A DNA stretch of 7,142 nucleotides, taken from a virus (Duplodnaviria > Heunggongvirae > Uroviricota > Caudoviricetes). The number at the start of each line of letters is the position of its first letter. The first letter of the stretch is position 1. The notes beneath the pieces are model-generated. The model did no database searches. It was not told where the DNA came from and was given only the letters and a program-made list of their open reading frames with translations. A program made the position numbers and the translations under genes. Where the stretch lies: positions 1 through 7,142 of IMG/VR virus record IMGVR_UViG_2740892219_000009; one strand, 5' to 3'. Of this stretch, positions 1,156 to 6,948 are shown piece after piece.

Positions 1156-1192
1156 TTCAAAGAATAAGCCCAAGGCTTTAAACCTCGGGCTT
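1156..1192 (-). terminator. Intrinsic terminator candidate on the minus strand (tR'-like), about 50 nt downstream of the candidate late promoter
   Basis: Minus-strand RNA would form a 10-bp stem AAGCCCGAGG / CCUUGGGCUU (one G-U pair) with a 7-nt loop UUUAAAG, followed by AUUCUUUGAA. On the plus strand the same dyad has an A-C mismatch and a weaker U-tail, so it may also act weakly for the plus-strand moron gene. Confidence 0.45.
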
Positions 1193-1247
1193 GAATTTGG
1201 ATTACTACCAGTGCGTACAACATTGGCAAAATATCAGATTTACATGA

Positions 1248-1276
1248 AATATATGCTTTTTAATCCAGTTTTGCAA
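1248..1276 (-). promoter_or_regulatory. Candidate sigma70 late promoter (PR'-like): -35 TTGCAA, 17-bp spacer, -10 TATATT
   Basis: Read on the minus strand: TTGCAA (1276..1271), a 17-nt spacer, then TATATT (1253..1248). Both hexamers are 5/6 to consensus with optimal spacing. The -10 lies 7 nt past the Q-candidate stop codon and the predicted start site (about 1241) is upstream of the hairpin at 1192..1156. This matches the lambdoid arrangement Q - PR'/qut - tR' - lysis genes. Confidence 0.4.
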
Positions 1277-1949
1277 TATCTTGCTGTGAAAATGTCGCCT
1301 TTTGTTTTGAACGTGTTCTCGTTACCAGCAATAAAGCTTCGCTATCAAGCTGTAGAAAAATGCGCTTCATTGCAACCCAGCGTTCAGTGAATGTCTCAGA
1401 CCAGTTTTTTGATGTCACTCCCACCAGTGATGCCAGCTCCTGGTATTCATAGGTCTCACGCCCTGCCAGTTCGCTCTTCACATCCTGTGCTGCCAGCCAG
1501 ATTAACGTCTTCAGGCGATCCAGTGTTTTACCTGCAATTTTTCTGGTACCCAACAGAGCCTTAAACTCGCTCCATGCCCACTGCGTTATGGCAACCTGAT
1601 GCTCCCAGCGAATATTTTCACTGTAACTCCACAGCAACCATGCTTTCTGATGTTCATCGAGAGACAAAATCGCACGCCGCCATGAAGAGGTTGAAAACTC
1701 GACCGAACTGACCAAGGCGACAGATGAACCTTTTGCGTACGACTGTTTACCGGAAATCGGCGGATTATCCAGCGTAATCATCTTGCCAGTTACCTCATCC
1801 AGAATGCGCGGCTTCTTTCGTTTATATGTACCAGTATCAAATTGTGCATGCTCCAGCCAGGCTTCAAGCTGGCCTTTCGTTGCTCCGCTCAAATCAGCGG
1901 TAGCCACCATGAGTTGCTCGCGGACATACTGTAAATATTGGATATTCAT
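1260..1949 (-). CDS. Putative late-gene antiterminator in the Q position (229 aa; not the lambda zinc-finger Q type)
   Basis: Track ORF with ATG at 1949 preceded by AAGGAG at 7-nt spacing; its start overlaps the ylcG-like stop (ATGA). It sits between rusA/ylcG and the late promoter and holin, exactly where lambdoid phages carry Q. The protein contains no cysteine, so it is not a lambda-type Q; assignment is positional. Confidence 0.5.
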   Translation of the reverse strand: MNIQYLQYVREQLMVATADLSGATKGQLEAWLEHAQFDTGTYKRKKPRILDEVTGKMITLDNPPISGKQSYAKGSSVALVSSVEFSTSSWRRAILSLDEHQKAWLLWSYSENIRWEHQVAITQWAWSEFKALLGTRKIAGKTLDRLKTLIWLAAQDVKSELAGRETYEYQELASLVGVTSKNWSETFTERWVAMKRIFLQLDSEALLLVTRTRSKQKATFSQQDIAKLD

Positions 1950-4111: not shown

Positions 4112-5638
4112 TTAAAAATAAACTTCCCCATCAATCATATACCTGAGAGTACTTATCGCCTGTTGGGCAGATATTATTTTCATCAAAGGATAGTGTTTAA
4201 AAACAATACCATTCATAAAATAGATATCACATGTTTTGTTATCTGTGTTTATTATAATTTTTTCGAATGTTTTATAAGCAAGTGTACGACATAATTCCCG
4301 CCCATTTTTACTGGTTAAATCAATGTCATGGAAATCACCAAGTGTACTTACACCTTTACTCTTCAAAGTTTTTAATGATATAGAAACCCTTCGCAATTCT
4401 TTATCTAATACTCTAATTTTTTCTGCTATAGCGGTAACTTCAGGTGCAACAGATAATGCAACAATTAAATTATTAATTTTCATCTGAAGTTCAATAACTT
4501 TCAATTCCAGAGTTTCATTAACATCTTTCTTATTTTCAACTGGTTGGATTTTACTACAATTAAAAAGCAATTCATTAACTATATTATAGTCAACCAAATC
4601 TCTTCTTATTGATGGCCTGTTACATCGATGCAATCTTCTCATCGGGCAAACATAATAGCCGTGCAAGCTTCCTGATACTGCATTAACAATCATAGTATTA
4701 CCACAAGCGCCGCACTTCATAACTGTTCGCAGTAGATTTATCAACATAGGATTCTTGCTACTATTGCTAATACCAAAAGGTGCCAGCCGAATTTCCTGCA
4801 CAGAGTAAAACAAATCATCTGATATCACTCTGGGATAATAGTCAGCGATTTCAATTATTCCCTTCCCTCTTGCACGATATGAAGGTACGCATATACCTAT
4901 CAGCGCTTTATTAGCTAATAATTTTTCAATTACAGAAGGCCCCCATGCACTTTCTTTTCCTGAGAAATTCTTTATAGCATGATCATTTAAATACTTAGCA
5001 ATTGCATTCAAAGAGCGTCTTTCCATCCTTAGTTTAAAAATCAGCTCAATCGTTTTCACCCTGTCAGGGTCTAAGACAAACGACGTTCTTTTTTCATCTA
5101 ATGAAAGCCATCTCGGGCAAGATGCCGTCATAATCGTACCTGACTCCATTGCATCTTGTCTTTTTTTCTTCCATGATAATTTAACTCGGCTTGACTTTAT
5201 CTCGCTTTCTTCATTGGCTCTTTGAGCTATAAGTATTGCTTTTATTAATGAATATGGTTCATTTAAAGAATCAATATTATAAGTTGTATTATCGCACAGA
5301 GTTATAACATCAATACCATGATTTAAAATCAGTTTCAGGCGTTCAATCGCCTCACCGACTTTTTCTCTTGAAAGTCTGTCCAGACTTTCAACTAGCAATG
5401 TAGTTCCTGGCAATATACAGCCATGCTCTATGGCATCTAAAAATTCCGAAAAAGCTCCTGACTGTGCATGCTTTCCATTGAATGCGCTTAACCCCAAATC
5501 TTCATACGTTACGGTATCAAGGTAATAATCACTATTTACCTTTAGCCATTCAGTAATAAGCCTTCTCTGACGGTTTAATGAATCACCAGACATCTGGCTT
5601 GGTGATGAAAATCGCATATATGCTATGGCTTTTTTCAT
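4112..5638 (-). CDS. Large serine recombinase (508 aa; resolvase-type catalytic domain, recombinase domain, Cys-rich zinc ribbon)
   Basis: The N-terminus MKKAIAYMRFSSPSQ...GDSLNRQ...LLVESLDRLSR carries the serine-recombinase catalytic motifs. The C-terminal half has the zinc-ribbon pattern KCGACGN...YYVCPMRRLHRC and a coiled-coil-like region. ATG at 5638 has an AGGTG Shine-Dalgarno. The gene is visibly AT-rich (roughly one-third GC by eye, against over half in the nin module). Size and context recall the DLP12 putative recombinase ybcK, but identity is unverified. Confidence 0.85.
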   Translation of the reverse strand: MKKAIAYMRFSSPSQMSGDSLNRQRRLITEWLKVNSDYYLDTVTYEDLGLSAFNGKHAQSGAFSEFLDAIEHGCILPGTTLLVESLDRLSREKVGEAIERLKLILNHGIDVITLCDNTTYNIDSLNEPYSLIKAILIAQRANEESEIKSSRVKLSWKKKRQDAMESGTIMTASCPRWLSLDEKRTSFVLDPDRVKTIELIFKLRMERRSLNAIAKYLNDHAIKNFSGKESAWGPSVIEKLLANKALIGICVPSYRARGKGIIEIADYYPRVISDDLFYSVQEIRLAPFGISNSSKNPMLINLLRTVMKCGACGNTMIVNAVSGSLHGYYVCPMRRLHRCNRPSIRRDLVDYNIVNELLFNCSKIQPVENKKDVNETLELKVIELQMKINNLIVALSVAPEVTAIAEKIRVLDKELRRVSISLKTLKSKGVSTLGDFHDIDLTSKNGRELCRTLAYKTFEKIIINTDNKTCDIYFMNGIVFKHYPLMKIISAQQAISTLRYMIDGEVYF

Positions 5639-5904
5639 GTTGACACCTGCTAATGCATACTTTTATAAACCTTAGCGGCGAGTTATAATTTTGTTTAATT
5701 TTTATTTAAAAAGACAATCGAGATCACATTTTCTTAAATATACAACAAATACCCCATAGCAATTTGCTGCCACATAAATTCACAGACACAAAAGAATATA
5801 GTGTATAAGCAGCCTAAAAACATTTATCAACAGTATAAAAAGAAGTTCGTTATCAGTGAATTGTTCTGTGATTGGGGATTATTGAACTTCTCGATCGAGA
5901 ATAT

Positions 5905-6198
5905 TCAGAACCCAGCGGGGGAACTCTTTGGCCACAGGAGTTCGTGCGAACATGACGATCCGTTGGTCTCCCCGAAGGCTAAATACTCGAGACGCCTGCA
6001 TTCCACGAGGGTGGTCACTTTGCCCCCTCCTATCATCATGTCTGTAAATTCATCTGAGTGACGAGAGTAAATGCGCTTAGCTGCGTTATCGTCCGCATAT
6101 TCCATTGCTAAACCAACTTCAGTGGCAGTAAGCCAAATTCTGTTGTTGTGGCAAATCGGGGTAAACGTCGTTTTGTGGAATGCTAATTGAGTAGTCAT
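5905..6198 (-). CDS. BRO-N / antirepressor-N-like domain protein (97 aa), possibly a truncated N-terminal fragment
   Basis: ATG at 6198 has a GAGGTG Shine-Dalgarno at 5-nt spacing. The motif F.K..FTPICHNNRIWLTATEVGLAMEYADD...SDEF resembles the BRO-N / P22 Ant N-terminal signature (F.F...IR...DGEPWF.A.DVA..LGY...D.DEK). The ORF ends where composition switches to AT-rich, and there is no C-terminal domain. Confidence 0.45.
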   Translation of the reverse strand: MTTQLAFHKTTFTPICHNNRIWLTATEVGLAMEYADDNAAKRIYSRHSDEFTDMMIGGGKVTTLVECRRLEYLAFGETNGSSCSHELLWPKSSPAGF

Positions 6199-6222
6199 AG
6201 TATCACCTCATCAGGTTAACAA

Positions 6223-6255
6223 TCACCACCAACGACGCCAATCGACAGGTGGTGA
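6223..6255. other. Inverted repeat with 8-bp stem (tcaccacc ... ggtggtga) and 17-nt spacer, upstream of the BRO-N-like gene
   Basis: Arms at 6223..6230 and 6248..6255, inside a GC-rich ORF-free stretch about 25 nt upstream of the BRO-N start. Could be an operator or an RNA hairpin. Confidence 0.3.
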
Positions 6256-6561
6256 ACTGTGCAAGGTTGGCGTAACCGGCTACACAAACCCGGCGCTTCC
6301 GAAGAAGCCCTCACACAGCCCACCATAATTTGGGCGTAGCCGCGCTTAGCGCATAAAAAAACTGCTTAACGCGGTATGCGTTGAGTAGTGTTCCGGGACG
6401 CCAATCCCGTGTGCCGATTTTGCGGCAACACAAAGAATTAGCCCCAGTGAATGGTGGCGGTCAACCGCAGTCATTCATTCTCATAATGTGATCACCATCA
6501 CTCAACAGGTTCCAGAAACCGCTCTATCATACTGACTTTAAACAGTTTTTAGGTGTTAAAT

Positions 6562-6948
6562 ATGTGGTTTATAGTATTAATAGCTATCCTGATTATTGCC
6601 GCTTTCGTTTTTAAAAGCTCCAAATCCAAAAATCCACCTTCGCAACCAGTTCGTACTACTAAAAAAATAAAGGCACCCACACATAAAAAAACGCAAACTA
6701 ACTATAGTTATAGTACCGATATCATTGAGTTAGATATAACTTATCAGGATGCGAAGGGCGAAATCACTAATCGCCATATATCTATCATAAAATACGACCC
6801 TTCAAAGAAAAAAATATATGCACGGTGCCATTTAAGAAAAAGCATGCGAAGTTTCTATATTGATAGAATATTAACCGCAATAGATATTGAAACTGGCGAA
6901 ATTCTTTCAGATCTCGACGGGTATATATCAGAAAGAATAAACTATTAA
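6562..6948 (+). CDS. Small membrane-anchored protein (128 aa) with a WYL-like C-terminal domain
   Basis: Track ORF 6553..6948 starts at a GTG; the ATG at 6562 is preceded by AGGTG at 6-nt spacing. The N-terminus WFIVLIAILIIAAFVF is a single transmembrane helix, followed by a Lys/Ser/Thr-rich linker and a beta-rich domain containing KIYARCHLRKSMRSFYIDRI, which resembles the WYL-domain core (WYL.A.C......R.FR.DRI). The gene is AT-rich. Confidence 0.6.
   Translation: MWFIVLIAILIIAAFVFKSSKSKNPPSQPVRTTKKIKAPTHKKTQTNYSYSTDIIELDITYQDAKGEITNRHISIIKYDPSKKKIYARCHLRKSMRSFYIDRILTAIDIETGEILSDLDGYISERINY

Follow-up and report, generated by a model that had tools for sequence, protein, structure and literature searches.

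In P1, the C4 RNA is excised from a leader transcript, its 5' end being generated by RNase P. Its short a' and b' sequences pair with a2 and b2, blocking ribosome binding and preventing antirepressor synthesis, and heteroimmunity arises from differences in these short sequences. The CI RNA of P4, with its seqA and seqC sites, follows the same concept, in that a small RNA processed from a leader base-pairs with two copies of its target, one upstream and the other downstream. Instead of blocking an antirepressor, P4 CI makes transcription of the replication genes terminate prematurely, and the likeness is taken from the description of the system, not from its sequence. P22 sar, another small antisense RNA, likewise blocks the translation of antirepressor (ant) mRNA, but its transcription is from the strand opposite that of its target, which makes it a true cis-antisense RNA, and it is unrelated in sequence and structure. 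P1 c4 has been described as acting by antisense pairing in the region of the ant ribosome-binding site (PMC12197685). In the Salmonella prophage Gifsy-1, a short terminated leader RNA binds the C4/orf45 region in trans and turns on antirepressor translation (PMC4825925). This locus also yields STnc1160, a processed RNA of ~80 nt (Hershko-Shalev et al. 2016, PMC4825925). IsrK has been called a structural homologue of seqA, and STnc1160 has been likened to CI (Hershko-Shalev et al., PMC4825925). The published model lays stress on activation by short IsrK, not on repression by the C4-like RNA (PMC4825925).

The window analysed here, the whole of a 7,142-bp stretch of phage DNA, carries a relative of the P1 and Gifsy-1 systems. 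On its minus strand, 6471..6199 is identified as a C4 cassette, the P1/P7-type immunity-I RNA module common in lambdoid prophages (probability about 0.95). Taken as a whole, the locus is explained best, and with high confidence, as an RNA-only immunity module of the immI c4 type, first described in P1/P7; this copy is probably in decay. It is considered the same module as P1 c4 and the Gifsy-1 isrK locus because Rfam matches and the order of parts in relatives are shared. Positions of its parts (Table 1) were transferred from P1, the record of which annotates a1, b1, C4 (77 nt), a2, b2 and icd-ant, through an alignment of the relatives (A2).

Table 1. Features of the C4 cassette and its surroundings (window positions; minus-strand features are given 5' to 3').
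Feature	Position	Strand	Remarks
AT-rich spacer	6472..6552		G+C 0.37; unshared with relatives; megablast matches (E. coli, phage) end at 6471
GTGATCAC	6488-6495		sole 8-bp palindrome in the stretch; 1 observed vs 1.29 expected in shuffles, P = 0.73
-35 hexamer TTGACC	6464..6459	-	candidate promoter element; aligns with TTGACG/TTGACA of six relatives
degenerate -10 TAATTC	6440..6435	-	at the position of TATATT in relatives
+1 of leader	about 6429	-	predicted
IsrK / c4-a1b1-like leader sRNA	6429..6355	-	two hairpins and Rho-independent terminator
leader hairpin 2 stem	6409..6406 / 6397..6394	-	a1 in loop; 98.6% paired in alignment
a1 UUGGCGU	6404..6398	-	loop of leader hairpin 2; perfect complement of a'
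b1 (A)CUACUCAA	6389..6381	-	exact direct repeat of b2; 8 perfect pairs with b' of closest relatives
IsrK terminator CCGC-GUUAA-GCAG + U7	6374..6355	-	U-run corresponds to A-run 6355-6361
GCGCTTAGCGC palindrome	6342-6352		in spacer between terminator and C4; unconserved
C4 antisense RNA, RF01695 (Rfam match)	6330..6245	-	75 bits, GA 45, E 8.8e-14, model positions 1-87/87
C4 RNA proper, 77 nt	6324..6248	-	ends placed from annotated P1 C4 ends
b' UUGUGUAG	6287..6280	-	loop of C4 hairpin 2
a' ACGCCAA	6273..6267	-	single-stranded junction after C4 hairpin 2; complements a1 and a2
8-bp inverted repeat hairpin	6255..6248 UCACCACC / 6230..6223 GGUGGUGA	-	C4 3' strand pairs downstream; a2 in loop
a2 UUGGCGU	6241..6235	-	6 nt past C4 3' end
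Shine-Dalgarno GAGGUGA	6209..6203	-	read from sequence; position conserved in alignment A2
antirepressor AUG	6198..6196	-
b2 (A)CUACUCAA	6195..6187	-	antirepressor codons 2-4; exact repeat of b1
Bro-N antirepressor pseudogene	6198..5843	-	frameshift yields a 97-aa product

The window is the nin region of a DLP12-like lambdoid prophage. Its phage genes all lie on the minus strand, in the order ren 3' end, cassette, 97-aa ORF, ybcK-like large serine recombinase, NinB/YbcN-like, RusA, YlcG-like, Q and LydA holin. It takes up the entire 7,142-bp contig BBVT01000064.1 of GCA_001514865.1. Whole-window megablast against complete E. coli genomes gave coverage of at most 64% at ~92-93% identity, with no near-identical copy. 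The part with the cassette, 6150-6471, is matched in 308 of 5,426 complete E. coli genomes (identity up to 93.8%), where a 202-aa 'P22AR C-terminal domain-containing protein' is encoded downstream of it.

The cassette falls within a stretch (6199-6552) that the initial annotation had singled out as GC-rich, against otherwise AT-rich non-coding DNA, and free of open reading frames. Both observations hold. G+C is 0.50, compared with 0.31-0.42 in the other intergenic stretches of the window, and each of the six frames contains at least three stops, the longest open run being 49 codons. The GC-rich portion is limited to 6199-6471 (G+C 0.538), and the remainder, 6472-6552, resembles the other spacers in composition. 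A promoter for the WYL-like gene on the far side could reside only in this AT-rich part, where a promoter-like TCAACA-17-TATCAT at 6502-6530 (plus strand), facing that gene, is no better than chance. Searches among genome contigs found no match to the exact 25-mer 6484-6508 and no relative of the WYL-like protein. The GTGATCAC sequence reported near 6490 is present, but occurs at chance frequency and lies outside the part common to relatives; its candidacy as an operator or Dam-regulated site was dropped on these grounds. The suggestion of a regulatory region for the two divergent flanking genes is partly right: the GC-rich part serves as leader to the Bro-N antirepressor gene on the minus strand, and is not a region common to both flanks.

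Covariance models give the GC-rich part its identity. An Rfam scan of the whole window returned three matches, every one on the minus strand. The C4 match extends over the full model, and its score is close to that of the functional phage copy in PhiR26_1 (74.8 bits). The C4 segment has a minimum free energy of -41.9 kcal/mol (z -4.64 relative to shuffles), and in the corresponding fold a 17-bp closing stem encloses two 5-bp hairpins and a single-stranded junction, which is the shape of the family. Upstream, isrK (RF01394) matches 6427..6355 (-) at 52.7 bits, a narrow pass of its gathering score of 50, compared with 55-80 bits in close relatives. The overlapping match to c4-a1b1 (RF03163) at 6440..6390 (-) reaches 32 bits and stays under its gathering score of 46.7. 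The whole-window scan gave no match to P22 sar, and searches for tRNA and tmRNA found none. C4 is followed on the same strand by the antirepressor ORF, which starts 50 nt past the C4 3' end and is presumably co-transcribed with it.

A structured non-coding RNA was among the options that the initial annotation had raised, and two Rfam families above their gathering scores, the stability of the fold and the covariation in 18 homologues described below bear it out. There is very little chance that the stretch is instead the remnant of a protein-coding gene, GC-rich from its former coding and devoid of RNA function. Such an origin would fit a G+C content like that of the window's coding DNA, the stops in all frames and a neighbour that is truly a pseudogene. 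However, two RNA covariance models score over their thresholds, both the structure and the intermolecular complementarities co-vary, and the same non-coding cassette stands ahead of intact antirepressors in viable phages, including P1, phiV10, VT2-Sakai and SfV. The degraded-gene option therefore fails for 6199-6471. The nucleotide search that had been proposed for finding such a remnant returned, from both phages and E. coli, the same non-coding cassette ahead of antirepressor genes.

The arrangement is shared across phages. Fifteen phage relatives were compared (TL-2011b, phiV10, Tyrion, phiv142-3, cdtI, Stx2c phage, PhiR47_1, YYZ-2008, VT2-Sakai, P27, 118970_sal3, ST64B, 2H10, SfV and PhiR26_1), besides the P1 immI region and Gifsy-1. 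All 15, as well as Gifsy-1, have an above-threshold isrK match ~25 nt 5' of the C4 match, and in all 15 an antirepressor gene follows the two matches or is annotated over them; in PhiR26_1, the same cassette precedes a gene annotated as 'Rha protein'. At the leader position of P1, c4-a1b1 scores 51 bits, and isrK scores 35 bits, which is under threshold. In Gifsy-1, the C4 match (34214..34131, 69 bits) lies between isrK and STM2616 (AnrP) and coincides with the published orf45/STnc1160.

Within the window, the parts, their order, their folds and the co-varying complementarities between them are established. Two copies of GACGCCAATC, complementary to 6267-6273, and two copies of TTGAGTAGT are present, and both the repeats and their complements in C4 were recovered independently by a repeat finder and by an ungapped helix listing. 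RNAduplex predictions of full-length C4 against long flanks produced unrealistic end-to-end duplexes, and the ungapped helix listing was used instead, together with a comparison of cognate and non-cognate pairs. The P1 sequence reads in the same way: hairpin 2 has b' as its loop, and the single-stranded junction that follows this hairpin is a'. The 8-bp-stem inverted repeat noted at the outset is perfect and, like its relatives' counterparts, conserved with compensatory changes (YYZ-2008, UCGCCACC/GGUGGCGA; P1, CCUGCCACC/GGUAGCAGG). In the predicted fold, the hairpin that it forms, which displays a2, competes with the C4 closing stem. This competition recalls the alternative structures A and B of Gifsy-1 (PMC4825925).

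A mechanism modelled on the studied homologues can be proposed for these parts. One promoter would drive a leader consisting of a terminated IsrK-like sRNA with the decoys a1 and b1, then C4, and then the operator sites a2 and b2, which surround the antirepressor's ribosome-binding region. The 77-nt C4 RNA would be cut out of transcripts that read through the terminator, and once free would pair, via its junction a' and loop b', with a2 and b2. This pairing would block initiation of antirepressor translation and so keep the prophage repressor safe, while the short a1/b1 RNA would compete for the same C4 sequences and could relieve the block. RNase P processing, repression of translation and the activating role of the short RNA would carry over to the window from P1 and Gifsy-1; activation by the short RNA in Gifsy-1 is what an a1/b1 decoy would be expected to do.

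The covariation analysis suggested earlier was run on an alignment of 18 cassettes including P1, with Gifsy-1 scanned separately, and both the structure and the intermolecular pairings co-vary. The tested structures come from the window row, an advantage to them in the slid controls, and the aligned cassettes are related to one another, so that shuffle counts are not probabilities; read in this light, the intramolecular structure (C4 and leader hairpins) has 93.2% of cells paired, against 82.5% in shuffles, with 18 compensatory pairs, none of 500 shuffles as good and slid registers at 40-49%, and the a1-a' helix is 96% paired over the 18 sequences, with five of seven pairs changed on both sides, again none of 500 shuffles as good and slid registers at 27-54%. 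The three C4 helices supply 14 of the 18 compensatory pairs of the tested structure, the closing stem and hairpin 2 each being 100% paired and hairpin 1 97.7% (18 sequences). Leader hairpin 1 is present in the fold, but as specified its outer pairs are out of register in the alignment (66% paired). Tested jointly, the a'-a2 helix and the 8-bp inverted repeat are 95.8% paired with seven compensatory pairs. Separately, cells of the a'-a2 helix are 88.9-97.6% paired, with four of seven pairs changed on both sides, and the inverted repeat is 96.5% paired over 18 sequences, with three compensatory pairs.

The pairing sites fall into specificity classes. Five classes of a' occur (ACGCCAA, AGACCAA, GUGCUAA, UUUCCAC and CUGUCAA), each matching its own a1 and a2, and the ACGCCAA/UUGGCGU class of the window accounts for 13 of the 18 sampled cassettes. 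The b' loops are more diverse, with 14 distinct sequences that each match their own b1 and b2, that of the window with a mismatch. Cognate b helices average 8.1 and 8.8; when non-cognate partners are combined, the averages are 4.5 and 5.3. The alignment itself shows the three-way compensatory changes unambiguously.

The pattern of variation also bears on whether part of the cassette is a small coding gene. An ORF of 36 aa that begins at a conserved AUG (6326..6324) and ends at 6216 might be the counterpart of Gifsy-1 orf45, with its translation coupled to that of the antirepressor, though this is improbable. The AUG, which lies within UUAUGGUGGG, is invariant in the 18 cassettes, and an ORF is annotated at the same position in VT2-Sakai and P27. 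In Gifsy-1, mutation of the orf45 start or an added stop lowers AnrP activation (Hershko-Shalev et al., PMC4825925). However, variation follows the pattern of an RNA, with compensatory pair changes throughout, and a review of the Gifsy-1 work remarks that orf45 is conserved at the nucleotide level but variable in amino-acid sequence. The 5' processing site of P1 C4 is likewise marked by the invariant UUAUGG, and in the window the downstream gene is frame-shifted and truncated, which leaves no partner for coupling.

Against the promoters of E. coli 95-3322, PhiR26_1, YYZ-2008, VT2-Sakai, P27 and Gifsy-1, which formed the comparison set for the -35 hexamer, that of the window appears impaired. 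The distance from -35 to -10 is 18 nt in every compared relative. The -10 of the window matches the consensus at two of six positions, with a C at -7, and is followed by a gap of 5 nt to +1, compared with 6-7 nt in relatives. A consensus promoter scan found no minus-strand promoter at the -35/-10 site of the cassette. A weak -10 can still fire. Further upstream, an unconserved TTGAGT-17-GAGAAT (6505..6477, minus strand) could replace the degenerate promoter.

The terminator is also weakened. Its stem carries GCAG (A at 6363, giving a C-A mismatch) in place of the GCGG of relatives, and the hairpin has a predicted stability of -1.5 kcal/mol, compared with -5.9 and -6.2 in relatives. The A-run that the initial annotation placed after a palindrome near 6340-6365 is the U-tail of this minus-strand terminator. 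The palindrome itself, GCGCTTAGCGC, exists but is not conserved: the closest relatives carry GCGCTAAGCAC (minus strand) at this site and other relatives differ more. It probably arose through one substitution, and as a functional hairpin it was dropped, since it is unconserved in relatives.

The second contact of C4 is altered as well. The b' of relatives is UUGAGUAG, which forms eight perfect pairs with both b1 and b2. The window b' has a U rather than an A at 6284, producing a central U-U mismatch with both sites and a helix of 3+4 pairs instead of eight. The b' helices are intact in 17 of the 18 cassettes, the window being the sole exception, and its b' duplex is weaker by 2.5-4 kcal/mol. 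Moreover, b2 overlaps the Shine-Dalgarno in most other cassettes, while that of the window lies after the AUG. With an interruption in the b' helix, and with b2 past the AUG rather than on the Shine-Dalgarno, the b' contact may be non-functional in this copy.

The target gene carries three lesions. One C is missing from the C-run at 6011..6009, and this 1-nt deletion results in the frame-shifted 97-aa product. In the original frame, a TAA at 5881..5879 replaces the CAA of relatives. Homology to the antirepressor ends near 5843, beyond which AT-rich DNA and the serine recombinase block replace its 3' part, so that the P22_AR_C domain is missing. The full-length relative combines Bro-N and P22_AR_C. 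Compared with Pfam, the unrepaired 97-aa product has no match; after repair of the frameshift, the N-terminus matches Bro-N at 31.7 bits (cut-off 25.6). The 'BRO-N-like gene' of the initial annotation is therefore right as to homology, but, judged from its sequence, the 97-aa ORF is a frameshifted, prematurely stopped and 3'-truncated antirepressor pseudogene. A separate assembly of the reads yields the same 97-aa product, and a sequencing artefact is unlikely since the gene has three independent lesions.

Compared with the two closest relatives, the window thus has six differences at functional positions (the -10, the terminator, b' and the three antirepressor lesions), the comparison being with these two only, at 92-94% identity. 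Because of the degenerate -10, the weakened terminator, the b' mismatch and the three inactivating lesions in the target gene, the cassette is on balance read as a decaying relic rather than a working switch. It is possible, though unlikely, that it instead still works in trans as an immunity element, with C4 repressing the antirepressor mRNAs of other phages of its a' class, whether co-resident or incoming; the IsrK-like RNA could act on those mRNAs too, which would explain why the RNA part was retained. C4 is intact, with a score of 75 bits and all stems paired, its a' class is common to 13 of 18 cassettes and the P1/P7 system is trans-acting by design. Nevertheless, the -10 is degenerate, and b' is mismatched to the only b1/b2 sites known for its class. 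Given that b' differs in nearly every phage, cross-reaction would depend on the 7-nt a' by itself, and the window, which spans one 7.1-kb contig, brings no second prophage into view. A more speculative extension, regarded as rather doubtful, is that the RNA cassette outlived its own antirepressor by providing cross-immunity in trans, through its C4 or its IsrK-like RNA, against other lambdoid phages of the common ACGCCAA class, with U6284 as the first step towards a new specificity instead of a sign of decay.

Relic or not, the element resembles the P1/P7 immI region (RF01695, RF03163; clan CL00128) in the order of its parts (promoter, a1, b1, C4, a2, b2 and gene), in the inferred 77-nt length of the RNA, and in a long closing stem with two inner hairpins, where the junction contains a' and the hairpin 2 loop contains b'. 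In both, a2 lies just past the C4 3' end and the downstream gene encodes an antirepressor. Unlike P1, a plasmid prophage, the window holds its cassette in a lambdoid nin region, without an icd-like ORF between C4 and the antirepressor and without a recognisable C1 operator. Its b2 is at codons 2-4, not on the Shine-Dalgarno, its a'/b' pair is ACGCCAA/UUGUGUAG where P1 has CUGUCAA/CACUAAC, its b' is mismatched and its target gene is dead. With the Gifsy-1 isrK-orf45(STnc1160)-anrP locus (RF01394), it shares the isrK match, a C4-family RNA ~25 nt downstream and then an antirepressor, in a lambdoid prophage with the Q antiterminator nearby and an isrJ-type element in both. However, the Gifsy-1 cassette is located past Q, where it controls the ORF6N-domain protein AnrP, whereas that of the window lies ahead of the nin genes and is followed by a Bro-N protein. 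Gifsy-1 has TTGACA-18-TATATT as its promoter and an intact terminator; in the window both appear impaired.

The element is therefore already known, represented by curated Rfam families, by near-identical counterparts across hundreds of E. coli genomes and by homologues in P1/P7 and Gifsy-1 that have been studied experimentally. Its differences from P1, namely the lack of an icd-like ORF, b2 at codons 2-4, the Bro-N/P22_AR_C gene and the location in a nin region, are class-level variation. Since AnrP of Gifsy-1 is an ORF6N protein while the gene in the window is Bro-N, the RNA cassette is a portable module that stands ahead of unrelated antirepressors. In annotations, C4 antisense RNA plus IsrK/a1b1 leader is the proper label for the stretch, and Bro-N antirepressor pseudogene that for the 97-aa ORF; for this locus, the result means little beyond annotation. 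For the family, it identifies Gifsy-1 orf45/STnc1160 as a C4-family RNA and IsrK as the a1/b1 leader of that cassette. Because the Gifsy-1 locus is a C4 cassette, the models of repression in P1 and of activation in Gifsy-1 describe the same module, though a 2025 review still treats the two systems separately. The a'/a1/a2 and b'/b1/b2 triplets also allow lambdoid prophages to be typed simply, from sequence, by the immunity specificity of their antirepressor control.

In Gifsy-1, isrK and the C4-family RNA appear to be components of a single module. A C4-family match lies 25 nt past isrK and falls on the published 'orf45'/STnc1160 (Table). Rfam leaves isrK out of its C4 clan, and IsrK and c4 are entered as unrelated items in a 2025 review (PMC12197685).

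Both RNAs are overlapped by annotated protein-coding genes in several relatives. In phage cdtI (L006), a CDS of the antirepressor/Rha/'transcriptional regulator' type (821-1969) spans the isrK and C4 RNAs, and the same overlap occurs in relatives L008, L011, L013 and L016 (SfV); all five CDSs are annotated as starting hundreds of bases upstream. The 382-aa frame of cdtI is genuinely open through isrK and C4. For these RNA-spanning antirepressor CDSs the gene call has probably been over-extended, the real start being the ATG past b2, the downstream target of the C4 b' loop.

Pairing of the hairpin-2-adjacent junction a' with its downstream partner a2 is broken in one of the 18 aligned cassettes, that of SfV, where a1, unlike a2, matches a' perfectly. 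The 5' flank of C4 in the window nearly repeats the 3' strand of hairpin 2 together with the beginning of a', and P1 carries a comparable UUACGCCC ahead of C4; this repeat copy may be part of the processing substrate. Further upstream lies an imperfect palindrome whose centre is the -35 element TTGACC of the predicted cassette promoter. The palindrome is not present in the two closest relatives, and could represent an operator or a chance occurrence.

Features of the cassette, its surroundings and related phages (GA, Rfam gathering score)
Feature	Location	Strand	Details
Imperfect palindrome	window 6448-6477		14-nt arms, 11/14 complementary, 2-nt spacer
isrJ (RF01393) weak match	window 1165-1244	-	25 bits, below GA 37
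a2 site UUGCCGU	SfV (L016) about 1300-1310		one mismatch vs own a' ACGCCAA
C4-family match	Gifsy-1 (L020) 34131-34316	-	69 bits, at 34214..34131; on 'orf45'/STnc1160
ybcK-like large serine recombinase	window 4112-5842		508 aa; Resolvase, Recombinase, Zn_ribbon_recom domains
128-aa protein gene	window 6562-6948	+	N-terminal hydrophobic helix; sub-threshold WYL match
Direct repeat CGGCUACGCC / CGGUUACGCC	window 6333-6342 vs 6269-6278	-	

A weak isrJ match immediately follows the Q antiterminator gene (1949..1260). It opens with UGUAAAUCUGAUAU, 14 nt identical to the isrJ consensus, and continues into a GC-rich hairpin and U tail; in Gifsy-1, isrJ scores 100 bits and sits between anrP and the tRNA/lysis genes. 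The window match may correspond to a short terminated RNA from the Q-controlled late promoter.

A rare moron-like gene, encoding the 128-aa protein, separates ren from the cassette and is carried on the other strand. Its product, which scores 16.7 bits against WYL (cut-off 21.8), was found in just two contigs of a large contig collection, with no relatives in GTDB representative genomes. On the other side of the cassette, the ybcK-like recombinase sits within an AT-rich block (GC 0.27-0.41) that starts at the point where full-length antirepressor homology ends; this block looks like an insertion or replacement event that deleted the 3' half of ant.
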